Positions 61 to 60,678 of a stretch of DNA of 64,000 nucleotides are shown in pieces. Numbering within the stretch: the first letter of the stretch is position 1; the number at the start of each line of letters is the position of its first letter. The position numbers and the translations under genes were made by a program. This DNA is from an uncultured Gammaproteobacteria bacterium. GTDB taxonomy: Bacteria > Patescibacteriota > Patescibacteriia > CAZSQN01. The DNA lies in contig CAZSQN010000001.1 in assembly GCA_964609095.1 (NCBI GenBank), positions 11,901-75,900 of the forward strand, read 5' to 3'. The notes beneath the pieces were generated by a model. That model was not told the DNA's origin and searched no databases. It saw only the letters and a list, made by a program, of their open reading frames with translations.

Positions 61-654
61 ATGAAAAACAGGAGGAGGCCCCAAAAAGGAAATATGATTA
101 AACACAAAGATCAGCGCGTCGGTGTTTTTATTGACGTGCAAAATATGTACTATTCGGCGCGCAACCTGCATGACGCTAAAGTCAACTTCAGCGCCGTGGT
201 GGAAGCGGCTGTTTCCGGAAGGAATCTTATCCGCGCCATTGCCTATGTGGTCAAAACGAAAACCGGAGAAGAAAAGCCCTTTTTTGAGGCGCTGATGAGC
301 TCCGGCATAGAAACAAAAGAAAAGGTATTAATGGAATACTTCGGCGGAGCAAAAAAAGCCGACTGGGATGTGGGCATCGCGGTGGACGCTATCCGTATCG
401 GCACGCTTCTTGATGTTGTTGTTCTGGTCTCCGGCGACGGCGACTTTCACCCTTTGGTGGAATATCTGAAAAACCAGGGCCGCCAGGTGGAAGTAATTGC
501 TTTTCGCGAAACCGCCTCAACCAAACTGGTGGAAATAGCCGATAATTTCACGGATATTTCGCAGAATCAGGATAAATTTCTGATAAAAAGCCGCGAACGT
601 TCCCGGCCAAAAGCCGCGATTATAAGAGGAGGAAGAAGGTTGCCGGTGGAATAA
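61..654 (+). CDS. NYN/LabA-like domain protein (PIN-like fold)
   Basis: 197-aa ORF; motifs VGVFIDVQNMYYSARN and VVLVSGDGDF typical of LabA/NYN (DUF88) proteins; alternative start at 94. Confidence 0.7.
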   Translation: MKNRRRPQKGNMIKHKDQRVGVFIDVQNMYYSARNLHDAKVNFSAVVEAAVSGRNLIRAIAYVVKTKTGEEKPFFEALMSSGIETKEKVLMEYFGGAKKADWDVGIAVDAIRIGTLLDVVVLVSGDGDFHPLVEYLKNQGRQVEVIAFRETASTKLVEIADNFTDISQNQDKFLIKSRERSRPKAAIIRGGRRLPVE

Positions 655-660
655 AAACAT

Positions 661-719
661 TTAGCGTATAGCGTATAGCGTTTAGAATTATCCTAAACCC
701 TAAACGCTAAACCCTAAAT
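661..719. repeat. heptamer-repeat hairpin (TAGCGTTTAG ... CTAAACGCTAAACCCTAAA), family copy 1, immediately upstream of pnp
   Basis: seen directly: ttagcgtatagcgtatagcgtttag and inverted partner ctaaaccctaaacgctaaaccctaaa; related copies at 13565-13645, 38442-38512 and partial at 28479-28505. Confidence 0.6.
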
Positions 720-841
720 AAATGTTCTGGTCTCGAGACACACAGATGTCGCAGACATCTCCAGTCTCGCGATCAGGCTCAAATCTTTCGACTTCGCTCA
801 AGCTTATCCTGGGCAGGCGTCGAAGGATAACAACTGATCGT

Positions 842-5620: not shown

Positions 5621-5735
5621 AAATCACAAAATTTTCAATTTCTAATTTCTAATTTTCAATAAATTTTCATTGAAACAATGAAGCATTGGAAATTGACTGT
5701 AAATTGAGAATTGAAAATTGATAATTATAAATTCT
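5621..5735. repeat. AT-rich palindromic intergenic element (aattttcaatttctaat ... attgagaattgaaaattgataatt)
   Basis: inverted arms seen directly; related copy at 60018-60100 (tcaataaatttttattga core). Confidence 0.4.
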
Positions 5736-5740
5736 AACTT

Positions 5741-13564: not shown

Positions 13565-13645
13565 AAGCGTTTAGCAGTTAGCGTATAGCGTTTAGTTTTT
13601 ACACTAAACCCTGAACCCTGACCGCTAAACCCCATACCCTAAAAT
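13565..13645. repeat. heptamer-repeat hairpin family copy 2 (gcgtttagcagttagcgtatagcgtttag ... ctaaaccctgaaccctgaccgctaaaccccataccctaaaat), abutting ppa ATG
   Basis: same GCGTTTA / TAAACGC and CCCTAAA heptamers as at 661-719. Confidence 0.6.
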
Positions 13646-27275: not shown

Positions 27276-28489
27276 AGGTGAAAGAAATTTATTTGGATAA
27301 TTCAGCCGCGACTTCTGTGGATCCGCGAGTGCTCTCTGCCATGCTGCCGTATTTTTCCGAAATCTGCGGCAACCCCTCAAGTTTTAATAGCGCCGGCAAG
27401 CTGGCCAAAGACGCTGTTGAAAGAGCGCGCGAAAAAGTGGCCCGGATTTTTAATTCCAAGATTGACGAGGTTATTTTTACGGCCGGCGGCACCGAAGCCA
27501 ACAATTTGGCAATTTTGGGCTATGCCCGCGCCAACAGGGAAAAAGGCAATCATCTGATAACGCAAAAAACTGAGCACCACTCGGTTCTTGAAGCTATGGA
27601 GCATTTGGAAAAGAAAGAAGGGTTTAAGGTCACCTATCTTGATGTTGACGAATATGGCCTGGTTGATTCCAAAAAATTGGAGGCGGCCATTACCAAAGAA
27701 ACAATTTTGGTCTCCATTATGTATGCCAATAACGAAATTGGCACCGTAGAGCCAATCGCGGAGATGGGAAAAATCATCGCGGCTAAGCGCCAGGAGCTGG
27801 GAAGCGCCTTGCGCTTCCACAGCGATGCCTGCCAGGCGGCCGGCAGCTTGGATTTGGATGTAAACAGATTGCATATTGATTTGCTGACCATCAACGGTTC
27901 AAAAATTTATGGGCCTAAAAATGTCGGCGTTTTGTACATCAAAACCGGCGTAAAACTTCAGCCGCTTATCTTTGGCGGGCCGCAGGAACGCGCCTTAAGG
28001 CCCGGCACGGAAAATGTTCCCGGCATAGTCGGCCTTTCTGTTGCTTTAGAGATTGCTCAAAATGAAAAAGAAAAAGAAAACAGCCGCCTTACGGCTATCC
28101 GCGACCGCCTTATAAACGGGATTCTCTCAACTATTCCAAAGTCAGTGTTAAACGGGCATCCCGCCAAACGGCTTCCAAACAACGTTAATATTTCCATTTT
28201 GGACATAGAGGGCGAAGCGCTTGTTTTGTATCTGGACGCCAAGGGCGTTTATGCCTCAACCGGCTCGGCTTGCACCTCCGCCTCCCTTGACCCATCTCAT
28301 GTTATTGTGGCCACCGGCATGCCTTATGAAGCAAGCCACGGCAGTTTGCGCCTGACGCTCGGACGCCAAACAACGGCCGAAGACGCCGAATATGTGATAA
28401 AAATTCTGCCGGAAATAGTAGAGAAATTGCGGGCGATTTCGCCGGTTAATTTAGATATGAAGCACTATAAACGAGTGCTTAGCGGTTAG
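27272..28489 (+). CDS. iscS: cysteine desulfurase
   Basis: PLP-dependent class V aminotransferase; SGSACTS active-site Cys loop; 405 aa. Confidence 0.95.
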   Translation: MKVKEIYLDNSAATSVDPRVLSAMLPYFSEICGNPSSFNSAGKLAKDAVERAREKVARIFNSKIDEVIFTAGGTEANNLAILGYARANREKGNHLITQKTEHHSVLEAMEHLEKKEGFKVTYLDVDEYGLVDSKKLEAAITKETILVSIMYANNEIGTVEPIAEMGKIIAAKRQELGSALRFHSDACQAAGSLDLDVNRLHIDLLTINGSKIYGPKNVGVLYIKTGVKLQPLIFGGPQERALRPGTENVPGIVGLSVALEIAQNEKEKENSRLTAIRDRLINGILSTIPKSVLNGHPAKRLPNNVNISILDIEGEALVLYLDAKGVYASTGSACTSASLDPSHVIVATGMPYEASHGSLRLTLGRQTTAEDAEYVIKILPEIVEKLRAISPVNLDMKHYKRVLSG

Positions 28490-28519
28490 CGTTCAGCGTT
28501 TAGAAATTAATATTTTTTT

Positions 28520-29161
28520 ATGGAAACACCCGATATTCAATCTCATAATAAGAAGGATGAGTGGTTTTACACCGAAGAGGTAAAAGACCATTTTTTCCAT
28601 CCGCGCAATTTTATGGACGCGAGCCCGGCTGATTTTAACGGCATGGGCATGGTCGGCTCGCCGGCCTGCGGGGACATGATGACCATCTGGATTAAGGTTG
28701 ATCCGGAATCCGAGCGCATTAAAGAATGCAAATGGAAAACCTTTGGCTGCGCCTCGGCCATTTCTTCAACCTCAATGATGTCGGTAATGGTGACGGGAGA
28801 CGAAGGAATGAAAATAGACGAGGCGCTGAAGCTCAAACCGCAGGATATAATCGCGCGGCTGGGAGGGTTGCCGCAAAGGAAATTCCATTGTTCGGTTTTG
28901 GGAGACAAGGCCCTGCGGGCAGCCGTTAATGATTATTTCAGGCGGACAAACCAGAAAGAAAGGATTGTGCTTGAGGGCGCGAGAGTTGTAGATAAGGTTT
29001 TAAAAATCACTGACCGTGATATTGAAGAAGCGGTGCTGGAGGGCGCCGATACTCTGGAAAAAGTTCAGGCAAAAACAAAGGCGGGTACGGGAGACCCATC
29101 CTGCATCCCAGAGGTGGAACAGCTCATAAGATTTTATAGGGAAAAATATTTTGGAATTTAA
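28520..29161 (+). CDS. iscU: Fe-S cluster assembly scaffold IscU/NifU N-domain protein with C-terminal extension
   Basis: GSPACGDMM ... FGCASAISS conserved Cys motifs. Confidence 0.85.
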   Translation: METPDIQSHNKKDEWFYTEEVKDHFFHPRNFMDASPADFNGMGMVGSPACGDMMTIWIKVDPESERIKECKWKTFGCASAISSTSMMSVMVTGDEGMKIDEALKLKPQDIIARLGGLPQRKFHCSVLGDKALRAAVNDYFRRTNQKERIVLEGARVVDKVLKITDRDIEEAVLEGADTLEKVQAKTKAGTGDPSCIPEVEQLIRFYREKYFGI

Positions 29162-29239
29162 TTGGGAATTATGAATTAAAAATTACGCATTATGAATAAT
29201 TTGAATCTTAATTCTTTATTCCTGATTTTTAATTCAAAT

Positions 29240-38421: not shown

Positions 38422-38441
38422 TTATATCACCTGCCTTTCTT

Positions 38442-38512
38442 GTTAGGGTTTAGCGTTTAGGGTTTAGGGTTTAGTTTTTCACTAAACGCTATACGCTATA
38501 CGCTGAACGCTT
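38442..38512. repeat. heptamer-repeat hairpin family copy 3: (GGGTTTA/GCGTTTA)x4 - loop - (TAAACGC/TATACGC)x4
   Basis: gttagggtttagcgtttagggtttagggtttagtttttcactaaacgctatacgctatacgctgaacgc read directly; between pilin paralogs 2 and 3. Confidence 0.6.
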
Positions 38513-38851
38513 TTACCCGGCCGAGCGGGTTAATGCTCCTATGACAAAGTTAAGTATAGCATAAGCGGCAAAGATTGTGGCTATGCCTAATGTTGCCCAG
38601 ACCAGAGTATCCTTGCCTTTTTTTACTTTTTCGTCATTGCCGCCGGAGGTAAGCCAGAGAAAGCCGCCGTAGATAAACATAAGCAAGGCAATTGAGCCGA
38701 CAATCCCCAGCGCGGCGCGGATAATGTTGGCAATAATAATTCTTATATCCGAAGTGCCTAAAGGGTTGGGCAATTCGCCGGCAAAGGCGGGAAGGGCTAC
38801 TAAGAGATAAGAGATAAAAACTATAAGAGATAAAATTTTTTTTAATTTCAT
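38513..38851 (-). CDS. VirB2/TrbC-like pilin-type small membrane protein, paralog 3
   Basis: YGGFLWLTSGGNDEKVKKGKDTL ... ATIFAAYAILNFV. Confidence 0.65.
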   Translation of the reverse strand: MKLKKILSLIVFISYLLVALPAFAGELPNPLGTSDIRIIIANIIRAALGIVGSIALLMFIYGGFLWLTSGGNDEKVKKGKDTLVWATLGIATIFAAYAILNFVIGALTRSAG

Positions 38852-38876: not shown

Positions 38877-40241
38877 TTATCCTCCCTCCGAAGTTGTTTT
38901 ACAGCAGATGTTAAGTCGTCCGCCCGGGCAATAACCCTGCAAACACTCCCCGCTGTCTATTTTTGACTGAAATTCCGCCTCATTAATCTCGGTGCATTCA
39001 AAGGAGGTTGTTTCCGTGCTTAGATCCTGACATCGGCTGCCCGCTATTTCTCTTGTGATAAGCGTTTGTTGGGCAAAGTTTATGATTGTCGCGGCTCCGA
39101 ATATTATGATAAGTCCGATAACCGCTCCGGTCAATATCTTTCTTCCTTCGTCAACCTGCTCCGCCACGCCGGCGGCTGTAAGCCACTTAAATCCGCCGTA
39201 GATAAACATAAACAGAGCCAGCGAGCCGGAAATGGCCAATATCAGCCGGACAATGTTAATGCCTACCTGTATAAGCTGTGGCAGGCCGCATTTACTAGTT
39301 TCGGTGGCGCCGCGGGTGCAGGCCTCCGGGATAAGACGGGGTAAAAAACTTCTGCCGCCTCCGGCTTCTTCGCTTCCGCCGGCTTGCTCCGGAGGAAGCG
39401 CGGCCCCGCCGCAAATATCAGGGTCGCTGGACACGCTTACAAAATTTCCATCGCCGCATTTGGTCGGGCACGCTTGGTTGCCGTCTTCATCCGGCAGCAG
39501 CGGCTGGGCAATTCCGTCGCGGCATAGGCAGCAGTTGGCGCCGCGGCGCCCGGCCTCTTCTTCCGCGCATTTTTTCGGCCGGCCGGAGCAAACGCCGGAG
39601 AAACATTCCGTATTTTCATTGCAGTTTTCTCCCCCGCTTTTTTTGTTCTCGCAGTTTCCCTGCGGCGCGCAGTATTGGCCAATAAGGCAATCTCTTTCCG
39701 CGGTACATCGGCAGATGCCGCCATCACATCTGCCGGAAGCGCACGTGTCTTCCGGTCTGCAGGCCTCGCCGACTCTTTTAGGCGGCGCGCCGGTCTCGCA
39801 AGCCCCGCCGGAACAACGGAAACCATCCGGGCAATCGCTGTTTAAGACGCATCTTCTGGCGCAGGTGCCTTCTACGCAGCTCCCGCTTTGGCATTGGAGA
39901 TTGCCTTGAGGGCAGGCGCCGCCGTCGCTTACTTTATTAACGCAAACATCATTGCTGCAATATTGGGACGGGTTGCCGCAATGGCTATCGTCTCCGCAAT
40001 CCTCGGCGCAGCTCCCATTATCGCAGGCGCCGCCAAGGCATTCCTGCCTGTTAAAGCAGCTTGAACCATCGGCTTTTTGATTAACGCAGCGGCCGCTGCC
40101 GCAGTATTGAAATGCTTGGCAATCAGTAATTGAGCCGCAATCCTGCGCCAAAGTTTTTTGAGGCAAAAATAAAATAACTCCAATAAAAATGGCAATAAAT
40201 ATGGTAAGCTTATGGCTTATAGCTTGCAGCTTATAGCTCAT
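38877..40241 (-). CDS. large pilin-like protein with an N-terminal cysteine-rich repeat domain, an embedded VirB2/TrbC-like hydrophobic domain and a Cys-rich C-terminal tail
   Basis: signal peptide; four ~45-aa repeats of 8 Cys each (DCxxxxDCxxxQYCxxGRCVNxxxDGxxCxxxxxCxSGxC); then YGGFKWLTAAGVAEQVDEGRKIL ... GLIIIFGAATIINFA as in paralogs 1-3; 454 aa. Confidence 0.65.
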   Translation of the reverse strand: MSYKLQAISHKLTIFIAIFIGVILFLPQKTLAQDCGSITDCQAFQYCGSGRCVNQKADGSSCFNRQECLGGACDNGSCAEDCGDDSHCGNPSQYCSNDVCVNKVSDGGACPQGNLQCQSGSCVEGTCARRCVLNSDCPDGFRCSGGACETGAPPKRVGEACRPEDTCASGRCDGGICRCTAERDCLIGQYCAPQGNCENKKSGGENCNENTECFSGVCSGRPKKCAEEEAGRRGANCCLCRDGIAQPLLPDEDGNQACPTKCGDGNFVSVSSDPDICGGAALPPEQAGGSEEAGGGRSFLPRLIPEACTRGATETSKCGLPQLIQVGINIVRLILAISGSLALFMFIYGGFKWLTAAGVAEQVDEGRKILTGAVIGLIIIFGAATIINFAQQTLITREIAGSRCQDLSTETTSFECTEINEAEFQSKIDSGECLQGYCPGGRLNICCKTTSEGG

Positions 40242-40243
40242 AA

Positions 40244-41659: not shown

Positions 41660-41660
41660 A

Positions 41661-43828: not shown

Positions 43829-43918
43829 TTTGAACTCACGATACCCTTGCGGGTATACCGGTTTTCGAGACCGGCTCTTTCAGCCGCTCAGACACCTCTC
43901 CGCCAAGTTTGTTAGGTT
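43829..43918 (-). tRNA. tRNA-Ser (anticodon CGA), type II with long variable arm, CCA encoded
   Basis: revcomp GGAGAGGTGTCTGAGCGGCTGAAAGAGCCGGTCTCGAAAACCGGTATACCCGCAAGGGTATCGTGAGTTCAAATCTCACCCTCTCCGCCA folds as a canonical cloverleaf. Confidence 0.85.
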
Positions 43919-43934
43919 AAATCCAATTTTTTCT

Positions 43935-44156
43935 TCAGTTGTCGTCTTCCTTGGCTGGATTTGTAAAATAATTCCGTTTTTCTCGCCAATGTTTTGTTTC
44001 TGTGCGCCTCGTAATAAATAAGTACCAAGGCTTATGTGCTTTTGTTGATGTTACCTCGCCGGCATTATGGGCGGTAAATCTAGCCTTTAAATCATCCGTT
44101 ATACCTATATATAAATTCTTTTTGACAATGCTCTGTAATATATAAGTGTAATGCAT
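43935..44156 (-). CDS. GIY-YIG nuclease-domain protein (YhbQ/UPF0213-like)
   Basis: YTYILQSIVKKNLYIGITDDLKARFTAHNAG matches GIY-YIG core; 73 aa from MHYTYIL. Confidence 0.75.
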   Translation of the reverse strand: MHYTYILQSIVKKNLYIGITDDLKARFTAHNAGEVTSTKAHKPWYLFITRRTETKHWREKRNYFTNPAKEDDN

Positions 44157-44198
44157 ACTCTCGTATTTCCGCACCGGAGACAATTACACCAAAGAGTA

Positions 44199-45434
44199 CT
44201 ACTTTTTTGCCTCTCGGTCAATGTTTTGCGCGATTGCCGGAATCGCGAGCATCAGCCAAAACAGCATTGAGAGGTCATTTTTAAAATAGGGGACATCAAC
44301 AAGACCGTGGATGAGCATCACCGCCATTGCTCCGCCCGAGGCCAGAGCGAACGTCCGCAAGCGCTCGTCTTTTGCCATCTTTTTAATCCGTACGAAGAAA
44401 ACGGAGACAAGGGCGCCAAAAGCAAAAAGCCCCAAGAGCCCCAGCTCGCTCCAAAAGTTTAAGAAAATATTATGCGGATAGAGAAAGGTTTCAATTGCCG
44501 TTGCCTTGTGATATGGAAGCATTGTTTTTTGATATCCGGCCAATCCCGCGCCAAAGACCGGCCGGTCTTTTAGCATTTTCCAAGTTTCATTCCAGGTAAT
44601 TTTTCTTACAATTCCGGACCAATCGCGGAGAAGAAGTTTGTCAGTGACCGGTTTTAAGACCGGCGGCTGGGACACCAAAACAAACGCAATCGTAAAAGCG
44701 ATAATAAAGGCCGCTATTTTTTTTGTCTTGTTTTTTTGCGCTCTGATAATTAAAGATGCCATCACAACTGTGATGGCCACCAGTCCGGATTCTGTTTTGG
44801 CCAAAATTATTGCCGTAAGCATTAAAGGGAGAGAGAGAATAACAATTTTTTTCCAAACCTCGCCCATATATTGCTTCATATATATAAAGAAGATTATAAG
44901 CGGGGCGAGAAAGAGTCCCACGGCATTGGGGTAAGGGTATGGCCCGGTTACGCGGCGCTCCAGGAGCCACGGCTGCGGAATACCGGCGCCGGTAAACTTC
45001 TGCGCAATCGCCCAGAGGGAAATAACCAGCGCCGAAACGAGCAGAGCGCGAAGCATCAAGCGCAAATATTTTTTGTTTTTAAGGTTTTGCGAGACGAGAA
45101 AAAAGAAAATTATCGGTTCCACAAAATACGCTTTCCAAATTCCCAGAGCGGAGACCTTGTCAGGAGAAACGATAACCCCGATAGTAGAGGCAAATAAAAA
45201 TAAAACAATAGGAATTTGGAATTTGGAATTTGGAATTTGGAATTTTCTTTTTGCAACGGCAATGGTAAGAAGAGCGATGGACAGAAGTTCAAGAAGCGTG
45301 GTAGGAAGCGGGCCGAGGGAAGTTCGGATCAAGTATAAAGGAAGAAGTGCCGGGAATATGGAAAGAGCCGAGGAGAAGTTTTTCCAAGCAATGACTCCGT
45401 AAGCAGCGGCGATGGCGATTAAAATTATGGTCAT
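44199..45434 (-). CDS. O-antigen ligase / Wzy-like polytopic membrane protein
   Basis: about 10 TM helices with a large periplasmic loop; operon-coupled (4-nt overlap) with the flippase gene; contains the in-frame repeat KFQIPNSKFQIP. Confidence 0.55.
   Translation of the reverse strand: MTIILIAIAAAYGVIAWKNFSSALSIFPALLPLYLIRTSLGPLPTTLLELLSIALLTIAVAKRKFQIPNSKFQIPIVLFLFASTIGVIVSPDKVSALGIWKAYFVEPIIFFFLVSQNLKNKKYLRLMLRALLVSALVISLWAIAQKFTGAGIPQPWLLERRVTGPYPYPNAVGLFLAPLIIFFIYMKQYMGEVWKKIVILSLPLMLTAIILAKTESGLVAITVVMASLIIRAQKNKTKKIAAFIIAFTIAFVLVSQPPVLKPVTDKLLLRDWSGIVRKITWNETWKMLKDRPVFGAGLAGYQKTMLPYHKATAIETFLYPHNIFLNFWSELGLLGLFAFGALVSVFFVRIKKMAKDERLRTFALASGGAMAVMLIHGLVDVPYFKNDLSMLFWLMLAIPAIAQNIDREAKK
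45212..45246. repeat. heptanucleotide tandem repeat (GAATTTG)x4 + GAATTTT inside the O-antigen-ligase-like CDS
   Basis: ggaatttggaatttggaatttggaatttggaatttt read directly; unit length 7 is not a multiple of 3. Confidence 0.8.
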
Positions 45435-46870
45435 GGATTTATGGGCTTCTTAGCGCGGAGCTTTAAAAGTTCAGTTAGGGTATTTGGCGTGACGGCTCCG
45501 GTCGCGAGTAACAGAGCGAAATAGATAAGCGCGGATAGCGTCACGGCCGCAATCGCGTGCAGGTCGCGCATAAAATATCCGGCCGCGCCCATAATAATTG
45601 CGGAAAGTGCCGCGCGCCAGGCGGATATGATGCCAAAGCCGACCCCGGTTTCTTTTTTTACCAGTATTCCGGCAGAGACAGCGACAAAGGCCTCGGAAAA
45701 AAGAGTGATGCCGGCGGCGGCGAAAACTCCGTAGCGCGGAATAAGCAGGGCATAGAGGGCAAGGGAAAGCACGGCGCTTGCGGCAAAGGCCCAGAGGATT
45801 CTTTTTTGTTTTTCTATGGCTACCACCGTGTGCAAAGGCAGCGCTCCTATAAATAGGAAGAAGACGGCCAGGATGAGTACGCGCAAGATACTGCCGGAAG
45901 AGGCAAACTCTTCTCCGGCCAGAATGGACATTACTTTGTCGCCAAGGGCGAGCGTTCCGGCAACCAGGGGCAGAGCCAGAATAACCAGGGCGTAAAAGCT
46001 TTTTTGGTACAGCCGGGCGAATTTTTCCTTGTCTCCGGTTGCCCAGGCGCCGGATAAGAGCGGCAGAATCAGGCCCATAAAGAGCACGGGGAAGGCGGTT
46101 AAGACATCAACTACTCTGTAGGCGGCGCCGTAAAGTCCGACTTCTTCAACCGTGCGCGAAAGCGAAAGAACGAGCACGTCCGCGCGCAGGTAAACGAGGT
46201 TTAAGGCAATGGAAACAGCGACCGGCCAGGAACGGCGCAAAAGCTCCATCCACTCGCGCGTGTCAAAAGAAAATCTGACGGGAGTAAAAGAGTTGGCAAA
46301 GAGGAGCGCCAGAAGCGCATTAAGGACATTGGCGGCCACCAGCGCGATAAAAATTCCTAAAAGCCCGCCGTGAAGATAGGCGGAAATAATCACTCCGAGG
46401 AGAAGAGCGGCGCGGCTGGCAATTTCGGCAATGGCGATTTTGTCCATGCGGAGGTTGGCCTGGAAAAGCGCCGAGAGCATCTGCGTAAAAGCAGTGGCCA
46501 AGAAGGCGAGCGCGGCAATGGCAATGCCGATTTTAATTTCTCCTGAATACGGAAAGAAAAGCGCGACTATGGGCGCGGCGCCGAAAAATAAAAGTCCGGA
46601 GACAAGGCGGAAGCCGAGCGCGGTTCCTAAAATCTTTTTTCTGTCAGTGTTTGGATTTCCAAAAAGCGAGGCGAGGGTGATAGTTAAACCCAAATCAACG
46701 GCAATGCCGAAGAACTGCAAAAATGCCGTGACGGTGGTAAAAGCTCCGAAGCCGGCCGTGCCGATACTGCGGGTAATAAAACCGATAGTAATAAGGCCCA
46801 GAACAATGGACCCGGCTTTGCCAATGGCCTGGACCCCGGTGTTATAAGCGATTTTTCTAGCGACAGACAT
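45431..46870 (-). CDS. Wzx/MOP-superfamily polysaccharide flippase
   Basis: 479 aa, 12-14 TM helices, typical polysaccharide biosynthesis protein N-terminus MSVARKIAYNTGVQAIGKAG. Confidence 0.8.
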   Translation of the reverse strand: MSVARKIAYNTGVQAIGKAGSIVLGLITIGFITRSIGTAGFGAFTTVTAFLQFFGIAVDLGLTITLASLFGNPNTDRKKILGTALGFRLVSGLLFFGAAPIVALFFPYSGEIKIGIAIAALAFLATAFTQMLSALFQANLRMDKIAIAEIASRAALLLGVIISAYLHGGLLGIFIALVAANVLNALLALLFANSFTPVRFSFDTREWMELLRRSWPVAVSIALNLVYLRADVLVLSLSRTVEEVGLYGAAYRVVDVLTAFPVLFMGLILPLLSGAWATGDKEKFARLYQKSFYALVILALPLVAGTLALGDKVMSILAGEEFASSGSILRVLILAVFFLFIGALPLHTVVAIEKQKRILWAFAASAVLSLALYALLIPRYGVFAAAGITLFSEAFVAVSAGILVKKETGVGFGIISAWRAALSAIIMGAAGYFMRDLHAIAAVTLSALIYFALLLATGAVTPNTLTELLKLRAKKPINP

Positions 46871-46876
46871 AAAATT

Positions 46877-46907
46877 AGCTTATAGCTTATAGCTTATAGC
46901 TTATAGC
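46877..46907. repeat. heptanucleotide tandem repeat (TAGCTTA / GCTTATA)x4 starting 7 nt upstream of the flippase start codon
   Basis: tagcttatagcttatagcttatagcttatagc read directly; degenerate copy agcttatggcttatagcttgcagcttatagctcat forms the first codons of the Cys-rich pilin gene (40203-40241). Confidence 0.8.
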
Positions 46908-46992
46908 CCGATTATTCCAGTTAAACTATTGCTTTTATTTAGTTTTAGGTTAATATCCCTAAAGGTCTTTCCCAATACAACGGAGGTGATGA

Positions 46993-48006
46993 ATGGGCCT
47001 TAATCTGCGTCCCCGAAGGTGGTTTGGCAACAAAAAGAAGGTCGCGCTTATTTCCAATAAGAATTCCGGGCTGGGCACGCCCCGGGCCGGACTGGGTAAG
47101 GTCATCGGCTCCATTTTGACCACGCCCTACTGGCACTATGACACGGCCACGCTCTCCGAGCTGGACGAATCGGTAAAGCGCATTGCTTCGGAACAGCCGG
47201 ATATTTTTGCCTTTACCGGCGGAGACGGCTCGGTCCACCAGATTATTTCCAGGATTCTCCGGGAGTATTCCGAACGCGGAATTCCTTTGCCAAAGTTCCT
47301 TTACATCGGCACGGGCACGATGATGGTCATCGCGCGCTCCCTTAAATTGGACAAAATGTCCGCGGTTGATTTTACCAAAAAGATCACCGCCAAAATTGAG
47401 GCCCAGCAAAAAGGCTTGATCGCGCCCTTTGACACCACGCACGTGAACCCCTTGATGATTAACGGCGAAGGCGGGTTTCTCTACGGCGCCGGACTGCCCG
47501 TAAACCTCCTTCACGAATATTACAAAGGCGGAGACAAGCTTGGCCCCAGCCGCGCCATGAGGGTGGGGCTCGCAACTTTCTGGGATGAGCTCAAAGCTCT
47601 GCTCACATTTAGGAAATCAAAAAAGATGCTGACCAAGCCGGTGCACGCTAGGGTAATCTTGCCCGGGCTTGATCCGCCGGTGGCTCCCTACATGACCCAC
47701 ACCGTGCTCCTGGTCTCGTCGGTTGATCAGCTGGGTATGGGCTGCCGGGGCATGCCGCTCGCGATGAGCAAGCCTAATCACTTTATGCTGCGCTCCAGCC
47801 GGCTGGAGTTCTGGGGACTCGCAGCCAATCTACCGGCCATTTGGGCCGGGTGGTCGCCTCTGCCTTCAACTTTTGATGTTGTTCTTTCCGAATTAGTGAT
47901 TGAGTATGAGAGTCCAACCGAAACAATGGTTGACGGAGAAATGAAGCCGCCGACCTTCCGCGACGTCATCATCTCGGGCCCCCCGCTCGAGTTCATTACG
48001 GGATAA
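46993..48006 (+). CDS. diacylglycerol-kinase catalytic-domain family lipid kinase
   Basis: FTGGDGSVHQII (GGDG motif) and NAD-kinase-like fold; RBS ggaggtga. Confidence 0.7.
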   Translation: MGLNLRPRRWFGNKKKVALISNKNSGLGTPRAGLGKVIGSILTTPYWHYDTATLSELDESVKRIASEQPDIFAFTGGDGSVHQIISRILREYSERGIPLPKFLYIGTGTMMVIARSLKLDKMSAVDFTKKITAKIEAQQKGLIAPFDTTHVNPLMINGEGGFLYGAGLPVNLLHEYYKGGDKLGPSRAMRVGLATFWDELKALLTFRKSKKMLTKPVHARVILPGLDPPVAPYMTHTVLLVSSVDQLGMGCRGMPLAMSKPNHFMLRSSRLEFWGLAANLPAIWAGWSPLPSTFDVVLSELVIEYESPTETMVDGEMKPPTFRDVIISGPPLEFITG

Positions 48007-49042: not shown

Positions 49043-51085
49043 ATGGCACTCCCGCTAAAATCAGAGCAAACTCGGGCCGCAGCCGCCGCGACGCTTGTCG
49101 CGAGCGTGGCTGTGGCTTTTTTGATTGTCATTTCCGCCGCCTTCGCTTTGCGCGTATTAGAGGCGCGCATCAATGCCGGACGGAGCATTTTTTTACAAAA
49201 ACAATTGCTTAAATCAAAATCAGACGCGACTTCTTTTTGGGAGGCGGGTACGGCAAGACAAAGGCCGCGGCTGGGAAACGGTTATCGCCGTTTGGCTCAA
49301 GCCGTCCGCGCTTATATTCTTATTCCCACGGCCTCGGCGCGCGAGGCCGCGCCTGTTTCCAAGAAAAGATACGAGGCGAAATTTTTTATAGAATCGGATA
49401 AGGAAATCACGATGCGTTCGGGCGAAGTCGCCACCTACACGGTCGGTTTTAAAAATATCGGTTCCAAAGAGTGGAGAAATGACGGAAAAAATTATATTTC
49501 CGTTTACGCGGCCAAGCCATACTATCGCAAAAGCCGGTTTTTCTCTGAACATTGGGAAAAAGACATAAAGCCGGCGCGTTTGCGCGACGCGGTTGTTGCT
49601 CCCGGCGCGGTGGGTTATTTTGAAATAACTCTTAAGGCCCCGGAGAAGCCGGGAAATTATATTGAGAGATTTAATTTAGCCGTTGAGAATTCGGCTTGGA
49701 TGCCGGGCGGATATTTTTATGTGCCGGTAAAAGTTGAAGAAAAACCGGCGTATTCGGCCGCGCTTTTGCTAAAGAGTTCTAATGGGCTTGCCCTGCGCCA
49801 GGGCGAGGAGAAGAAAGTGACTGTCGGCTGGAAGAATAACGGCCGGGCCGCCTGGAAGGAGCGGGCGGTAGTGGTAAAAAGTTTGGAAATCGGGAATGAT
49901 GACGCCGCTTCGCCGGTAATTTTTGCCGCCTCCGGCTGGGGTCCGGAAGGACAGGCCGTGAAAGTCGGCGGAGAGCCGGTGGCGCCGGGCAGAGTTGATT
50001 TTATTGATTTTAATCTGCGCGCGCCGTCGCGTACGGGAGAATTTTCCATCAAATTCGCGCTTGTGGTTGACGGCGAGGAAATAGAAGGCGGCGATGTTGA
50101 TTTTACGGGCAATGTCACAGACGAATCGCGTTCTCTGGGGCTGCCGGCCATTGAACCGCTGGGATTTACAACCGAACCGAACATAAGAATAGGATTATGT
50201 TTTATTCCTTATGATGTTTCTGACAAAGGACAGACAGGCATTGACCCTTGCGTTGCGGACAAAAATCAAATTCTGCGCGTTTCTTCCAGCGCGTTGCTTT
50301 CGCTCCAAAATGAAGCGGGAACGGTTGTGGCGCAAAATATCGGCGCGAATGTTTCCATAAACTTTGATCCGGTAAGCAGATTTACGGTCGCTGCCAATGG
50401 AGTAAGCTATTCATTTATGAATGCCGTCAAAGTCGTGCCGAACGACCTTAATGCGGTTCTTGTTTTTGAAAATTGGAAAAATATAATCAGGAGCGGAGAA
50501 AACGATAACAGACAGCGCGGCATTCTTGAATTCCGGTATTTAGACGACAGAAAGCGGCTTTGGGCGATTAACGAGCTTCCTCTGGAGCGCTATGTTAAGG
50601 GCATTGCGGAGATACCGGCAGGTTGGCCGTTAGAAGTACAAAAAGCCCAGGCCATTGCCGCCCGCACTTACGCGGCTTATTACCTTCTGGCCGGAGGCAA
50701 GCACGCGAGTCAGCAGCATATTTTAAACGCCGGAGAAGGCGACCAAGTGTACCACGGAGTTGGCGCCGAGTTGCGCCGTCCTCTGCTTTCCGCAGCTGTT
50801 GATGAAACGGCCGGCATACTGGTTACCTATGGCGGCGGAGTTGTTTCCACTCCTTATTTCGGACAAAGCGACGGACGCACTAAGAGCTGGGCTGAGGTTT
50901 ACGGTTCAACTAACAGGCCGTGGCTGCAGTCGGTGGAAGCGCCGTATGATTTGGGAAAGACATTGCGCGGACACGGCATTGGCATGAGCCAGATGGACGC
51001 ATATGGGATGGCCAAATCCGGAGCGACTTATGAGCAGATTTTGAAGCATTATTATACGGGCATTGAGCTTAAACGAGCGTATTAA
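49043..51085 (+). CDS. SpoIID/LytB-domain protein with N-terminal TM anchor and repeated beta-rich domains
   Basis: C-terminal SpoIID signature (AQAIAARTYAAYYL ... GEGDQVYHGVGAE ... VSTPYFGQSDGRTKSW); start at MALPLKSEQ. Confidence 0.8.
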   Translation: MALPLKSEQTRAAAAATLVASVAVAFLIVISAAFALRVLEARINAGRSIFLQKQLLKSKSDATSFWEAGTARQRPRLGNGYRRLAQAVRAYILIPTASAREAAPVSKKRYEAKFFIESDKEITMRSGEVATYTVGFKNIGSKEWRNDGKNYISVYAAKPYYRKSRFFSEHWEKDIKPARLRDAVVAPGAVGYFEITLKAPEKPGNYIERFNLAVENSAWMPGGYFYVPVKVEEKPAYSAALLLKSSNGLALRQGEEKKVTVGWKNNGRAAWKERAVVVKSLEIGNDDAASPVIFAASGWGPEGQAVKVGGEPVAPGRVDFIDFNLRAPSRTGEFSIKFALVVDGEEIEGGDVDFTGNVTDESRSLGLPAIEPLGFTTEPNIRIGLCFIPYDVSDKGQTGIDPCVADKNQILRVSSSALLSLQNEAGTVVAQNIGANVSINFDPVSRFTVAANGVSYSFMNAVKVVPNDLNAVLVFENWKNIIRSGENDNRQRGILEFRYLDDRKRLWAINELPLERYVKGIAEIPAGWPLEVQKAQAIAARTYAAYYLLAGGKHASQQHILNAGEGDQVYHGVGAELRRPLLSAAVDETAGILVTYGGGVVSTPYFGQSDGRTKSWAEVYGSTNRPWLQSVEAPYDLGKTLRGHGIGMSQMDAYGMAKSGATYEQILKHYYTGIELKRAY

Positions 51086-51200
51086 ATGTCTAATATCTAA
51101 TTCCTAATTTCTAATCAATGACTAATGATTTAATGTCTAAAAAGATTTAGTTATTAGACATTAAAATATTGATTTGACATTAGAAATTAGTCATTGGTTA
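51086..51200. repeat. ~115-bp AT-rich palindromic element (atgtctaat ... taatttctaatcaatgactaatga ... ttagaaattagtcattgg), copy 1
   Basis: direct-orientation partner at 53950-54060 sharing both ends. Confidence 0.5.
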
Positions 51201-51689
51201 TTTCGTGTTTATTCCTCTTGTCTTATGAGATGGTCGGATTCATGAGACAGGACTGTGAACATTAAAGGCGGCGCCATTTGGAAAGCCGGACAGGTTTTTC
51301 TTCGGAGTTTCTAGATGGCGCTACCAGTATGTCCTTTGAAGAAATTAGAGATGAGAGAGGCAGTGCGGCCGTGGCAGAAAAGAATTCTTTTTTCGTAGCG
51401 CCGCCCATGCAAGCCGGAGCCGAAGGGGAAGTAACACATGTGTTCCTCTTCCCATGCTCGGACTATTCTCTTATCCGCTCAAATGTCTCCAGATTCGTGG
51501 AGAATACTTTTGGTCTTCCGGCGCCGGCGCAGGAATTTGAAACTTTTCCTGACGCGCTTGAAATCAAACAACTGGAGCCCGCATAATGCTCCGCTCAAAT
51601 ACCCCTCGTTCTGCGGACCGAGGGGTTTTATTTTTTATCTGTTTCTGTTAAGCTAATCCCGGTCCTTTTCACAATCAAGGAGGCGCGTC

Positions 51690-53949: not shown

Positions 53950-54060
53950 AATAAATGTCTAATGTCTAATCACTCTAATTTCTAATCAACGACCAATGAC
54001 AAAATATCTAAAAATTTTAATTATTAGATATTAGAAATTAGTCATTAGAAATTAATTCGT
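53950..54060. repeat. ~110-bp AT-rich palindromic element, copy 2 (direct partner of 51086-51200)
   Basis: taaatgtctaatgtctaat ... taatttctaatcaacgaccaatga ... ttagaaattagtcattag. Confidence 0.5.
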
Positions 54061-59309: not shown

Positions 59310-60017
59310 ATGAAAATTGTTTACGAAGACCATGATGTGATTGTGGTAGAAAAACCGGCCGGGTTAATCGTTCATGGCGGGCCGGGAATTAAAGAAAAGA
59401 CGCTGGCGGATGAGCTTTTAATCCTTTATCCTGAAATTAAAGATGTCGGCGAGAGCCCGGAGCGGCCCGGGATTGTGCACCGCTTGGACAAAGAGACATC
59501 GGGGCTGATGCTTATTGCCAAAAATCAGAAATCGTTTGATAATCTAAAAAAGCAATTTGCTGAGCGCGGCATAGAAAAAGAGTACCTCGCCCTGCTCTAT
59601 GGAAAACTGCGCGATGAGGCCGGCCGTATTACATTTAAAATAGGAAGATCGCGAAAAGGCGGACGCATGGCCGCCCGGCCGGAGAGCCAGGAGGGCCGGG
59701 ATGCGGTGACAGAATACGAAGTCATCAAACTATTTGTTAACGCTACTTTGGTTAAAGTAAAAATTTTAACCGGCCGCACGCATCAAGTCCGCGCCCATTT
59801 CCACGCCTTTGGCCATCCGGTTGTCGGCGATCCTCTTTATAAAATCAAAAGGATGAAAATCAGGCACGCGCCGCCGAGATTATTTTTGCACGCGGCCAAG
59901 ATTGGTTTCACGGATCTGGGAGGAAATTATCGGGAATTTGCGTCGCCGCTGCCCAAAGAACTGGAAGATTACCTGGGAAAATTAAAATTTGAAGCTCCCA
60001 GTCCCAAAAAAAGTTAA
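59310..60017 (+). CDS. RluA-family 23S rRNA pseudouridine synthase
   Basis: HRLDKETSGLMLIAKN catalytic Asp motif. Confidence 0.9.
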   Translation: MKIVYEDHDVIVVEKPAGLIVHGGPGIKEKTLADELLILYPEIKDVGESPERPGIVHRLDKETSGLMLIAKNQKSFDNLKKQFAERGIEKEYLALLYGKLRDEAGRITFKIGRSRKGGRMAARPESQEGRDAVTEYEVIKLFVNATLVKVKILTGRTHQVRAHFHAFGHPVVGDPLYKIKRMKIRHAPPRLFLHAAKIGFTDLGGNYREFASPLPKELEDYLGKLKFEAPSPKKS

Positions 60018-60100
60018 TTATCAATTTTTAATTTTCAATAAATTTTTATTGAGAGATGAAAAATTCAATGAAAATTGTTAATTGAAAATTGGAAATTTTA
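60018..60100. repeat. AT-rich palindromic intergenic element related to 5621-5735
   Basis: aattttcaataaatttttattgaga ... gaaaattgttaattgaaaattgg. Confidence 0.4.
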
Positions 60101-60678
60101 TGATTATCACCATTTCCGGCCTGCCCGGAGCGGGAAAAACAACCACCGCCAGACTTTTAGCCGAACGGCTCGGCTACAGGTATTATTCCATGGGCGATTT
60201 GCGCGGGAAGATGGCCACGGAGCGAGGATTGACCATAGACGAGCTTAACGAAAAGGCAAAAAGCGACCCGACGAGCCATACGGCCGTGGATGAATATCAG
60301 AAAAAACTCGGAGAAACAGAAGTCAATTTTATAATTGACGGCTGGATGAGCTGGCGCTTTATCCCCGATTCTTTTAAGGTCTTTATGACCATTGATCCGG
60401 ATGAGGCGGCCTTAAGAATCTTTGAGGCGAAAAAGAAAGACCCCAGCCGGAGCGATGAACCTGATTATACAAGCGTTGAAGATGCCAAAGAGACGATAAC
60501 GCGCAGAGTGGAAGTGACCAGAAAACAATTTAAGGATTTATACGGAGTGGATTTTACGGACCCGGCAAATTATGATGCCGTAATTGATACCACCGGTCAG
60601 GCATCGGCCAATGAGACGGTGGAGAAGATACTAAAGGCAATGAAAGAACAAGGACTTCTAACGGGGTTGACAGTTTAG
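60100..60678 (+). CDS. cytidylate kinase-like P-loop kinase
   Basis: Walker A ISGLPGAGKTT; start at MIITISG. Confidence 0.7.
   Translation: MIITISGLPGAGKTTTARLLAERLGYRYYSMGDLRGKMATERGLTIDELNEKAKSDPTSHTAVDEYQKKLGETEVNFIIDGWMSWRFIPDSFKVFMTIDPDEAALRIFEAKKKDPSRSDEPDYTSVEDAKETITRRVEVTRKQFKDLYGVDFTDPANYDAVIDTTGQASANETVEKILKAMKEQGLLTGLTV

Follow-up and report, generated by a model that had tools for sequence, protein, structure and literature searches.

Just upstream of the start codon of a predicted flippase gene, in the genome of an uncultured Uhrbacteria bacterium, lies a short perfect heptanucleotide repeat that contains four TATAAG words. The first-pass annotation of this locus saw in it a set of −10 promoter hexamers whose number could change by slippage, which raises the question of whether the repeat is a promoter switch or has some other origin and role. 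We addressed this question on the window (the whole stretch of 64,000 nucleotides that was analysed) and on metagenome contigs carrying the same repeat unit. The features discussed are collected in Table 1.

Table 1. Positions of the repeat, its neighbourhood and other period-7 elements in the window
Feature	Positions	Strand	Remarks
Family-A two-arm hairpin (TAGCGTW)n-loop-(CCTAAAC)n	653..722	+	Fills spacer, 2-3 nt from PNPase ATG
Paired (AATTTCY)n / (GAAAATT)n	5626..5740	+	Before ComM/Mg-chelatase-like gene; z -3.98
Family-A hairpin	13566..13634	+	Before inorganic pyrophosphatase gene; z -7.18
Single family-A-type arm (TTAGCGK)n	28472..28509	+	Overlaps stop of cysteine desulfurase-like gene, before nifU
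Paired (GAATTAW)n / (TYTTAAT)n	29158..29234	+	Between two NifU-type genes; z -2.54
Family-A hairpin	38439..38515	-	Between two T4SS-pilin paralogues; z -4.20
Degenerate copy of tract unit	40207..40242	-	Period 7, 5.1 copies, 75% matches
Perfect array (AAATTCC)5 in Wzy_C gene	45211..45245	-	In frame, encodes KFQIPNSKFQIP
Wzx-like flippase gene	45431..46870	-	479 aa; ATG 46870-46868
Spacer AUUUU, array to flippase ATG	46871..46875	-	5 nt, no Shine-Dalgarno
Heptanucleotide tract	46876..46907	-	4.6 perfect units; coding strand G(CTATAAG)4CTA
Possibly decayed partner arm AGCAAUAGUUUA	46922..46933	-	Weak; partly complementary to first units of tract
Candidate promoter TTGTAT-17-GATATT (inferred)	46952..46980	-	7/12 to consensus, under scan threshold
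Long (TCTAATN)n / (ATTAGAN)n hairpin	51080..51203	+	After SpoIID-domain gene; z -5.15
(TCTAATN)n / (ATTAGAN)n hairpin	53954..54055	-	About 4 nt before an ATG; z -5.24
(AATTTTY)n / (GAAAATT)n hairpin	60012..60101	+	In co-directional spacer, abuts ATG 60100; z -2.93

The tract at the flippase start

Tandem Repeats Finder reported a period of 7, 100% matches, the unit TAGCTTA and a length of 32 nt, the + strand reading TAGCTTA x4 followed by TAGC. This confirmed the presence of a perfect, potentially slippage-prone repeat at the flippase start, with four TATAAG words on its coding strand. The tract had been described as (GCTTATA)x4 lying 7 nt upstream of the ATG; the repeat itself is real, but it comprises 4.6 copies rather than 4 and the gap is 5 nt. 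Its unit size and its length beyond chance place it among the long simple sequence repeats (LSSR; units of 5-11 nt). Exact runs of at least three copies occur at two sites in the window, both of period 7, and never in shuffled sequences; none was found in the window for the other periods among 4-12. The 15-mer GCTATAAGCTATAAG, with up to three mismatches allowed, matched 11 times against 1.35 expected, and 11 or more matches were obtained in 0 of 100 shuffles.

The product of the downstream gene matches the Pfam families PF01943 (Polysacc_synt, 4.3e-23) and PF13440 (1.6e-21) and is named 'flippase [Candidatus Uhrbacteria bacterium]' by NCBI. No motif of the GGAG/GAGG/AGGA type occurs within 20 nt upstream of its ATG, in keeping with the earlier remark that the gene has no obvious ribosome-binding site; starts lacking a Shine-Dalgarno (SD) sequence are common in the window. 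The final TATAAG (46884-46879) ends 8 nt before the ATG. A nearly identical junction between array and start codon, CTAATTTTTATG, stands ahead of trmD at locus L081. Read as RNA, the tract is an A/U-rich (GCUAUAA)n sequence with UAA in all three frames, and it is predicted to be unstructured (fold z = +0.68).

The tract lies in a divergent control region of 122 nt between the flippase gene and a DAGK-like gene. This region contains a candidate promoter, whose GATATTAACC block is kept in an alignment with the relatives L011 and L012; a transcript starting from this element would have a 5'-UTR of some 75 nt that includes the tract. The block resembles a palindrome, with TAATAT on the + strand, so that it could equally serve the DAGK-like gene. 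That the element matches the consensus at 7/12 positions and may belong to the divergent gene counts against placing the tract in a flippase leader.

In the minimum free energy fold, AGCAAUAGUUUA pairs with UAUAAGCUAU. The flippase leader was no more stable than shuffled sequences (z -0.28 and -0.98), and no stable long hairpin having the tract as one arm was found in it. In an Rfam search of the window only tRNAs exceeded the gathering threshold. At E<=1, the interval 38300-47100 gave nothing credible on the tract, the best overlap being a snoRNA model with 24 bits against a gathering threshold of 60.

All four flippase relatives (86, 84, 84 and 70% identity) lack the array. Two of them, L009 and L010, retain a single AAGCT(A/T)TAA(G/C) word, and the first unit of the tract aligns with the TATAAT of the relative L012. 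The tract presumably arose in place, a lone GCTATAAG-like word being duplicated through strand slippage; in a more distant relative, the −10 box is what aligns with that word. Because the repeat is perfect, its length can change by whole units, and changes of this kind, already anticipated in the first-pass annotation, do occur at other loci with the GCTATAA unit, between near-identical flanks (five units in L021 vs four in L087; five in L019 vs four in L076). Copy numbers of GCTATAA arrays fall geometrically (3:65, 4:26, 5:12, 6:6 and so on). As for the flippase locus, Logan contigs with an identical flippase begin inside the tract and end inside the array of the wzy gene, these breaks being an artefact of k=31. 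Further assemblies of this strain, 100% identical, end at 43702, short of the tract, and a search of the genome collection for closer flippases yielded only ones with 29-39% identity.

Period-7 arrays in the window and in other Patescibacteria

The tract is one of the period-7 arrays that fill short spacers 5' of gene starts in this Uhrbacteria genome and in other Patescibacteria. Chance would give 0.7 such arrays in the window, which contains 20; 7 is the only enriched period there. Most of the arrays (17/20, p = 6e-12) are intergenic, occupying 8/28 co-directional, 2/8 divergent and 0/10 convergent spacers, although the last figure is not significant, the total length of convergent spacers being small. 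Many are two-arm hairpins ending just ahead of start codons, and most of the co-directional spacers that have an element are wholly filled by it. The downstream genes are mostly housekeeping ones, the neighbours including PNPase, a ComM-like ATPase, pyrophosphatase and NifU. Within the window, arrays with 4-5 units outnumber those with 2-3. Arrays within open reading frames use only stop-free units, whereas all intergenic arrays contain stops.

The hairpin ahead of the PNPase gene folds with -21.7 kcal/mol (z -7.98). Elements of its family (family A) keep the same orientation to the downstream gene in 7/7 cases from three genomes; double changes occur at 2/22 of their base pairs, in an alignment whose register is blurred by the repeats. 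The proximal arm of the element before the ComM/Mg-chelatase-like gene holds TTGAGA-16-TATAAA. Two known types of RNA element were considered and discarded for these arrays: intrinsic terminators, since the paired hairpins lack following U-tracts, and HutP-like antiterminator sites, whose pattern we take to be (UAG-N4)3, since several unit families have no UAG and the GCTATAA unit has none on its coding strand.

Arrays in the window can also be translated. The degenerate copy of the tract unit provides codons 2-11 or 2-12 of ORF 38877..40241(-), which begins MSYKLQAISHKL, and lies within the signal peptide. The first-pass annotation had correctly recognised it as a diverged version of the same unit opening a pilin-like gene; the product, however, is not a type IV pilus pilin but a TrbC/VirB2-type protein, as indicated by the T4SS_pilin domain PF18895 at residues 329-389. 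A perfect array at this place would read MSYKL*, so the substitutions in the degenerate copy have abolished the in-frame UAA. An orthologue (L133) has different heptad arrays at the same place, and these are translated as well. A later start, which would leave the copy non-coding, was rejected because no in-frame ATG, GTG or TTG occurs ahead of the hydrophobic core, and a non-coding status is further contradicted by the removal of exactly the in-frame stop and by the translation of the arrays in the orthologue.

Another translated array is the perfect one in the Wzy_C gene (O-antigen ligase/polymerase-like), which shares an operon with the flippase gene. Since this array is 35 nt long, a change by one unit would shift the reading frame. 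The same codons are taken up by (TTCGGGA)4.6 in the relative L010 (84%) and by non-repetitive sequence of equal length in L009 and L012. The wzy array and the tract are the only perfect arrays in the window, and both belong to this single wzx-wzy operon.

Outside the window, GCTATAA in at least 3 copies was found on at least 120 metagenome contigs. The ATG of a long open reading frame follows the array within 20 nt in 15 forward vs 7 reverse cases, the former not being all independent, as four represent one locus in related genomes. The genes behind the forward arrays encode EF-Tu (twice), RecA, DnaB, DnaG, TrmD and others, mostly without an SD sequence; on Patescibacteria contigs, the unit stands in the same orientation 3-15 nt before SD-less tuf, recA, dnaB, dnaG and trmD starts. 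Given these occurrences ahead of housekeeping genes, and some 20 arrays in the window, the tract is not a special switch connecting two surface genes, and the proposal that one repeat links two surface-structure loci finds no support.

Two observations at other loci bear on whether such arrays are transcribed. Both tuf loci have canonical promoters (10/12 matches) 140-190 nt upstream of the array, implying that the array there is part of the 5'-UTR. At L081, L030, L040 and L016 the array pairs with an upstream heptad array (z -9.0, -4.8, -4.3 and -3.2, respectively); since such pairing matters only if the array is transcribed, it too speaks for a 5'-UTR position.

A proposed transcribed leader and its alternatives

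From these comparisons of sequence, the explanation that we tentatively place first is that the tract is a (GCTATAA)n simple-sequence repeat, generated by slippage and present at the 3' end of the transcribed flippase leader. Transcription would begin upstream, and the array would close the 5'-UTR in the place of a ribosome-binding site. It would act, if at all, at the RNA level, as an A/U-rich, open piece of RNA, with stops in each frame, where initiation might proceed independently of an SD sequence, through ribosomal protein S1 or a repeat-binding factor; we know of no factor that binds the heptad repeat. A different number of units would change the length of the leader and, as happens with the hmw leader of Haemophilus, could adjust flippase expression by degrees rather than switch a promoter on and off. 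Such length-dependent tuning is possible. Because tuf and flippase relatives manage without a cassette of this type, any function would be modulatory at most.

Some features of the arrays sit less easily with a leader element. The geometric copy numbers, together with the occurrence of arrays in a signal peptide and in a membrane-protein loop, fit a purely mutational origin, and the orientation bias could stem from strand-biased generation instead of RNA function.

Nearly as likely as a leader role, though likewise falling short of an even chance, is that the tract has no function and is a neutral or selfish by-product of frequent heptad duplication and slippage, or of the insertion and exchange of cassettes, with arrays persisting where they are tolerated, i.e., in A/T-rich spacers, signal peptides and membrane-protein loops. 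Its closeness to the ATG would then only reflect where a compact genome has non-coding DNA; closeness is in fact forced in most co-directional cases, where the element fills the whole spacer. This explanation accounts for the geometric fall of copy numbers and the whole-unit indels among close relatives, and for the absence of the tract from the four flippase relatives. It also agrees with the situation at tuf, where EF-Tu relatives of 87-100% identity have leader cassettes of GCTATAA (D) type, TCCGAAT type or family A, or none; one Campbellbacteria relative has tuf without a cassette, and others have cassettes of unrelated units. Simple tolerance filtering would suffice to give stop-free units within open reading frames and stop-bearing ones between genes. 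Moreover, heptanucleotides are described as the commonest long SSR class in repeat-rich prokaryotes and are put down to polymerase slippage (Mrazek 2007, as summarised in PMC4679880).

Mere tolerance is harder to reconcile with the orientation of the arrays relative to genes, which is constant in family A and mostly forward for GCTATAA, or with the recurrence of identical unit families across lineages as distant as Uhrbacteria and Campbellbacteria. L016 and L134 share an identical start-proximal (CTATAAG)4 arm, with 5/30 positions differing between their distal arms. Furthermore, arrays stand right ahead of tuf and rpsJ, genes of the highest expression at which harmful insertions would be expected to be eliminated, and in the window 4-5 units are commoner than 2-3.

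A more far-reaching explanation, which we consider rather unlikely, is that the tract is the start-proximal arm of an undescribed, Patescibacteria-wide set of exchangeable heptad leader cassettes that serve as strand-specific RNA modules, orphan arrays varying the surface polysaccharide. In each cassette, a degenerate distal arm and a homogeneous proximal arm would flank a loop, with an SD-less ATG 0-20 nt further on. Such cassettes would enter, or replace one another, between a conserved leader and the start codon of genes such as tuf, rpsJ, pnp, ppa, nifU, recA and trmD. Cassettes might provide, e.g., RNase III-type processing sites, or ribosome-loading sites with a dedicated factor, and the orphan perfect arrays (before wzx and inside wzy) might support heritable, slippage-driven variation of the surface polysaccharide in an episymbiont with a reduced genome. 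Presence/absence polymorphism at orthologous sites, as used to recognise REP/MITE-like elements, was observed, both for the class at tuf and for the tract among flippase relatives. No clear target-site duplication was seen by eye between filled and empty tuf sites, and the tract in the window is single-armed. The exact 31-mer (CTATAAG)4CTA is common to the window, L016/L134, L040 and L081, but in view of the copy-number distribution it is not strong evidence for a fixed element size of exactly four units, and we discarded that idea.

The promoter interpretation, in which the TATAAG words are −10 elements of a leaderless or nearly leaderless flippase mRNA and slippage alters the promoter, so that together with the wzy array the polysaccharide operon becomes phase-variable, appears improbable. 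Two good promoters of leaderless appearance in the window show the same geometry relative to the start codon as the last TATAAG of the tract (gene 14586, TTGACA-17-TATATT-8-ATG; gene 5741, TTGAGA-16-TATAAA-9-ATG), and the TATAAT of L012 with which the first unit aligns is a canonical −10 box. Both perfect arrays of the window fall within the wzx-wzy operon, and the array in wzy persists at the same codons, with another unit, in the 84% relative, as a maintained contingency locus would; surface-polysaccharide genes are, besides, classical targets of phase variation. However, a sigma-70 consensus scan of 46700-47150 returned 0 sites. The best −35 for any TATAAG of the tract scored 2-3/6 (at 14/21/28 nt from a conserved TTTAAC word), and the T conserved at the last −10 position is missing from TATAAG. 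Nor was there an excess of −10-like hexamers at a constant distance from the start codons of the window, as a general leaderless signature would show. At other loci, the last TATAAG lies anywhere from 6 to >14 nt before the ATG, an SD sequence can follow the array (L115 and L119) and, at tuf, the promoters are far upstream; the unit also stands ahead of essential genes, tuf and recA among them, whose expression cannot be shut down. The assignment of TATAAG as a −10 promoter element was thus not upheld. The same applies to the claim that repeat number alters promoter spacing, because a fixed upstream −35 would keep its distance to the first hexamer.

Successive sites with a 7-bp period lie about 240 degrees apart on the helix, which is unusual for cooperative binding and counts against a DNA operator. 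That four heptads bind a repeat-recognising transcription factor regulating the divergent flippase and DAGK-like genes is most improbable, despite the position in the divergent control region, the recruitment of regulators by ctxAB promoter heptads (abstract of bioRxiv 10.1101/2021.05.14.444153) and an effect of heptamer repeats on how NtcA and LexA act at the recO promoter of Nostoc, since most arrays of the class occupy co-directional intra-operon spacers where no promoter is expected, units vary by family while the architecture is constant, and strand-specific orientation and arm complementarity point to RNA.

Irrespective of which explanation is correct, start-adjacent heptamer repeats have been noted for decades in cyanobacteria and Beggiatoaceae, with no accepted function, and the arrangement is now found in Patescibacteria. 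What is added are units shared between Uhrbacteria and Campbellbacteria, the association with highly expressed genes, the two-arm hairpins and the swapping at one orthologous site, which provide a comparative handle for telling functional translation or processing elements from selfish repeats. When genomes of the candidate phyla radiation (CPR) are annotated, heptad arrays next to gene starts should not be taken singly as promoters or phase switches, and perfect arrays break short-read assemblies at exactly such loci. If the perfect wzx-wzy arrays do vary in length, they would constitute a first candidate contingency locus in a CPR bacterium.

Comparison with known repeat systems

In classical phase-variable promoters, such as those of Haemophilus hif and Neisseria opc/nadA, a simple-sequence repeat lies between −35 and −10. 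The tract shares with them a perfect short repeat right upstream of a surface-structure gene, but it is neither inside nor between recognisable −35 and −10 elements, and a change of unit number would leave a −35/−10 spacing unaltered.

Tandem heptads upstream of a gene are also found at Vibrio cholerae ctxAB, where the copy number of TTTTGAT correlates with expression (bioRxiv 10.1101/2021.05.14.444153). As far as the available part of that report goes, those heptads are double-stranded DNA sites for ToxR and H-NS upstream of the core promoter, whereas the tract abuts the start codon and the arrays related to it behave as transcribed, strand-specific elements.

Accessible descriptions of the cyanobacterial heptamer repeats (STRR) place those of Nostoc often near or overlapping start codons and suspect transcriptional or translational effects. 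The arrays of the window resemble LSSR/STRR, as there portrayed, in the predominance of period 7, in their length beyond chance and in their enrichment in non-coding DNA; the paired arms and the exchange of unit families at the tuf leader fall outside those descriptions. The searchable literature contains no description of heptamer LSSR/STRR for Patescibacteria.

The (ATCTTTC)n repeats of hmw1A/hmw2A in Haemophilus influenzae are transcribed within the 5'-UTR, where their length, changed by slippage, sets expression, and they make up one side of a long hairpin whose other side is a partly complementary region (PMC12721329). RNase III cleavage, and expression that falls as units are added, are further marks of the hmw type. 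The tract is likewise a heptanucleotide repeat upstream of a surface-structure gene, and the heptad hairpins of L016, L030, L040 and L081 have the hmw hairpin architecture. The hmw repeats, however, count at least 11 units vs 4.6 in the tract, for which a convincing partner arm is lacking (z about 0 to -1), and hmw is a single specialised locus whereas the period-7 arrays are a genome-wide class.

The closest parallel is offered by the TAACTGA repeats of marine Beggiatoaceae, some cyanobacteria and Bacteroidetes, which occur in 2-6 copies ahead of genes of all classes, including ribosomal protein genes, and for which, their function being unknown, a translational role has been proposed (MacGregor 2015, PMC4679880). 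Like them, the tract is a tandem heptamer, intergenic, in forward orientation and a few nucleotides from a start without a ribosome-binding site, with no predicted folding and with stops in all three forward frames. It differs in its unit (GCTATAA instead of TAACTGA) and in its host, a member of the Patescibacteria (CPR), and in coexisting with several unrelated unit families in one genome, mostly as two-arm hairpins, whereas a single inverted case was reported for TAACTGA (PMC4679880). The tract agrees with the TAACTGA type in position and in the missing ribosome-binding site, but not in unit sequence; it works like that family without being a strict sequence member of it.

The heptad tract ahead of the flippase gene

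Tandem Repeats Finder described the tract as a repeat of period 7 with 4.6 copies and 100% matches, and the gap between it and the flippase ATG (46870-46868) consists of the 5 nt ATTTT. The first-pass annotation had thus portrayed the feature properly, except for the copy number and the distance to the start codon. Throughout the window, exact runs of at least three copies occurred at period 7 only, and none occurred in shuffled sequence, which marks the tract as a non-chance feature. A search of Rfam gave no family matching it. The product of the downstream ORF is named 'flippase [Candidatus Uhrbacteria bacterium]' by NCBI.

Coordinates of the features discussed (window positions unless a contig is named)
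Feature	Position	Strand	Description
Tract	46876-46907		+ strand TAGCTTA x4 + TAGC; minus (coding) strand G(CTATAAG)4CTA
Flippase ORF	45431..46870	minus	Wzx-type; PF01943 4.3e-23, PF13440 1.6e-21
wzy array	45211-45245	minus	perfect (AAATTCC)5, in frame, in the Wzy_C gene immediately after the flippase ORF
Degenerate copy	40207-40242		75% matches
Pilin-like ORF	38877..40241	minus	454-aa, Cys-rich, C-terminal TrbC/VirB2-type T4SS-pilin domain
Family A hairpins	653-722; 13566-13634; 38439-38515		
Other two-arm heptad hairpins	5626-5740; 29158-29234; 51080-51203; 53954-54055; 60012-60101		
Promoter before gene 14586	14549-14588		TTGACA-17-TATATT-8-ATG
Promoter before gene 5741	5700-5743		TTGAGA-16-TATAAA-9-ATG
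Identical ORF starts	29679-29690; 53591-53602	plus; minus	12 nt, GTGCGGGGTATG
tRNA-Ile	57027-57098	minus	anticodon TAT (ARAGORN)
L133 translated heptad arrays	2925-3023; 4364-4411		read as signal-peptide sequence
L010 array	3955-3997		perfect (TTCGGGA)4.6
L009 segment	~1110-1260		~120 nt, terminal inverted repeats
L006 paired arrays	405-444; 1313-1387		period 8; TATTGTTA... / ...TAACAATT

Relatives of the flippase were found at 86, 84, 84 and 70% identity, and in the contigs compared (L009-L012) none of the four carried a tandem array ahead of the start codon. L009 and L010 have one single AAGCT(A/T)TAA(G/C) word upstream of the gene, while L012 shows a canonical TTTACA-16-TATAAT promoter whose -10 is aligned with the tract's first unit. 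From these alignments, the tract appears to have arisen recently, in this lineage only, by expansion of a word already present. A block (GGGAAAGACC...GATATTAACC) some 50 nt upstream of the tract is common to the window, L011 and L012. Read in the flippase direction, this block contains TTGTAT-17-GATATT, a weak sequence that is a candidate promoter only and could equally belong to the divergent DAGK-like gene.

The L009 segment, upstream of the 86% relative, has CAGGTAGT...ACTACCTG as its terminal inverted repeats, with direct AAGCTATAAGT words on either side, and resembles a MITE-type insertion into a single word similar to the CTATAAG (GCTATAA) unit, hereafter D. A related ACTACCTGGTAAGCTTATAAC occurs in L010.

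Two Logan short-read (k=31) contigs with an identical flippase (L002 and L003) start inside the 32-nt tract, and L002 terminates roughly where the 35-nt wzy array lies. Such k=31 assemblies are split by perfect heptad arrays exactly at these two places. Independent assemblies of the strain are identical to the window, but end before the tract.

Period-7 arrays in the window

At a threshold of at least 15 matches out of 21, the window held 20 period-7 arrays, against 0.7 in Markov shuffles. The enrichment at period 14 is a harmonic of 7, and other periods between 4 and 13 never exceeded 7 sites. Despite about 85% of the window being annotated, 17 of the 20 arrays are intergenic (p = 6e-12), occupying 8/28 co-directional, 2/8 divergent and 0/10 convergent spacers. 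The unit families are TAGCGTW/CCTAAAC (family A), AATTTCY/GAAAATT, TCTAATN/ATTAGAN and D. Most arrays come as pairs, imperfect reverse complements of each other, predicted to fold as long hairpins with a mismatch at about every seventh position (z, the fold stability relative to shuffled sequence, -2.5 to -8.0). These hairpins largely make up their spacers, end 0-21 nt ahead of the next start codon, always point the same way with respect to the gene that follows and have no U-tracts after them. Unlike this paired majority, the tract is a single array without predicted structure (z +0.68); the degenerate copy is single and unstructured as well (z -0.78).

Genes adjoining the arrays encode PNPase, a ComM/Mg-chelatase-like ATPase, inorganic pyrophosphatase, two NifU-type proteins and T4SS-pilin paralogues, and do not form a surface-structure set. 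When repeated, every intergenic unit (GCTATAA, TAGCGTA, CCTAAAC, GAAAATT, AATTTCT, ATTAGAA, TCTAATT) contains a stop in each of the three frames; the units inside ORFs (AAATTCC, TTCGGGA, TCTCTTG) are stop-free in every frame.

The degenerate copy begins directly after the ATG of the pilin-like ORF, a gene that had been described correctly at first pass save for the type of pilin, which is that of T4SS. A perfect array in this frame would read MSYKL*; in the actual sequence CTATAA is replaced by CTGCAA, removing the stop, and the array ends ahead of the next one. Given this change and the absence of any alternative in-frame start before the hydrophobic core, the copy is translated and shaped by coding constraint. 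In L133, which carries a 61% orthologue of the gene, the corresponding position has (AATTTCC)3 directly after the ATG and (TCTCTTG)4 within the core of the signal peptide. A (TCTCTTG)n array is also present in the next pilin paralogue.

Adding or losing a unit in the wzy array would shift the frame. At the same codons, the 84% relative L010 has a perfect array of another unit, and L009 and L012 have sequence of equal length without repeats. The wzy array may be a contingency locus or may illustrate array turnover. Arrays inside ORFs keep their position and period but not their unit, which points to turnover at tolerated or favored sites. As units at conserved positions vary, the first-pass proposal that a specific sequence links the flippase and pilin loci found no support.

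In L006, from a more distant Patescibacteria (MAG138), paired arrays have period 8 rather than 7, so the preferred period may differ from lineage to lineage. Elsewhere in the window, two ORF starts on opposite strands are identical, with comparable A/T-rich stretches, each ending in TTAT, ahead of them, and may reflect duplication of a gene start or be copies of a repeated element. The window also encodes a tRNA-Ile with anticodon TAT, which is uncommon in bacteria, where AUA is usually read by a lysidine-modified CAU.

Heptad arrays in other genomes

Searching metagenome contigs for exact matches to (GCTATAA)3+G yielded at least 120 stretches. Among the matches listed, GC content ranged from 29% to 62% and copies from 3 to 16, with a geometric fall in frequency (3:65, 4:26, 5:12, 6:6 and so on), the behavior of an ordinary slipping SSR. 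Whole-unit changes between near-identical flanks were seen for L021 (5 units) versus L087 (4), and for L019, L074 and L130 (5) versus L076 (4). An ATG opening a long ORF lay no more than 20 nt after the array in 15 forward versus 7 reverse cases among the matches listed; four of the former represent a single locus from related genomes, and two of the latter are array-encoded artefacts. Genes downstream of the arrays, again among the matches listed, encode EF-Tu (L016, L103), RecA, DnaB, DnaG, TrmD, a PrgI-family protein, cytidine deaminase, DapF and DeoC, and most of them lack a Shine-Dalgarno (SD) sequence.

Both tuf loci have canonical promoters (10/12 matches), which precede the array by 140-190 nt. 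L016 belongs to Candidatus Campbellbacteria (EF-Tu 99% identical to a named MAG); its EF-Tu is only 76.5% identical to that of L103, and the upstream regions are otherwise unalignable. In L016, L030 and the groundwater contigs L040 and L081, the array forms the arm of a hairpin (z -3.2 to -9.0) nearer the start codon, and another heptad array forms the distal arm. Promoter distance and pairing both locate the array within the transcript, where a ribosome-binding site would be. Before trmD, L081 reads (CTATAAG)4CTA-ATTTTT-ATG, nearly the same as (CTATAAG)4CTA-ATTTT-ATG in the window. The reading we tentatively prefer, short of calling it probable, is that the tract is a putative transcribed, unstructured, SD-replacing leader array. 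It would lie within the leader transcript at the ribosome-binding-site position, and slippage could let its length drift, which might tune flippase expression.

We also compared a graded series of Campbellbacteria tuf loci (L016, L134-L141) from the conserved leader block GGTGTTAAAGTTATTATTAAT to the tuf ATG. At EF-Tu identities of 100% and 98% the site holds a D-type hairpin, with identical proximal arms and distal arms differing at 5/30 positions; at 93%, a hairpin of TCCGAAT/ATTCGGR heptads; at 91% and 87%, a family A hairpin like those of the Uhrbacteria window; and at 89%, no element. Among close relatives, this one site thus either lacks a heptad hairpin or carries one from any of three unrelated unit families, implying that the elements are dispensable and exchangeable. 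The family found before tuf also lies ahead of rpsJ in the same genome (L135, L141), family A keeps the same orientation relative to the downstream gene in 7/7 cases, and the vocabulary of elements is common to distant lineages. The tuf and rpsJ hairpins resemble cassettes that are exchangeable or mobile; the tuf sites showed no clear target-site duplication. It is possible, if somewhat doubtful, that the tract is a functionless by-product of such cassette turnover or of heptad slippage.

The promoter question and known systems

The first-pass annotation had taken the TATAAG hexamers of the tract for -10 elements of a phase-variable promoter. The geometry makes this idea not absurd, because the last TATAAG ends 8 nt ahead of the ATG, as do, at 8-9 nt, the -10 boxes of the well-formed sigma-70 promoters before genes 14586 and 5741 (the latter made of heptad units), which suggest leaderless mRNAs in this genome; SD sequences are absent from many window genes. 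Also in its favor, the only two perfect arrays of the window both lie in the wzx-wzy operon, and the wzy array is prone to frameshift. However, scanning both strands of 46700-47150 with the consensus gave no sigma-70-like site. The hexamer TATAAG ends in G where a -10 box has its conserved final T, no -35 at a spacing of 16-18 nt matches better than 2/6, and -10-like hexamers are not enriched at this offset across window genes. We consequently regard a promoter role as unlikely. Least of all do we expect the tract to be a DNA operator array.

Heptad arrays of this kind in Patescibacteria were not found in the searchable literature. According to a summary of Mrazek 2007 in PMC4679880, heptanucleotide units predominate among long prokaryotic SSRs. 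TAACTGA heptamers of Beggiatoaceae, cyanobacteria and Bacteroidetes occur in 2-6 copies in forward orientation, end a few nt ahead of RBS-less start codons and are unstructured, and a translational role has been proposed for them (PMC4679880); like the intergenic units described here, they contain stops in all three frames. Nostoc heptamer repeats lie at or overlap start codons. In the H. influenzae hmw leader, (ATCTTTC)n is transcribed as one arm of a 5'-UTR hairpin that is cut by RNase III, and repeat length sets adhesin expression (PMC12721329). The tract is a real, recent heptanucleotide repeat of a known kind; its unit and its host group are new.
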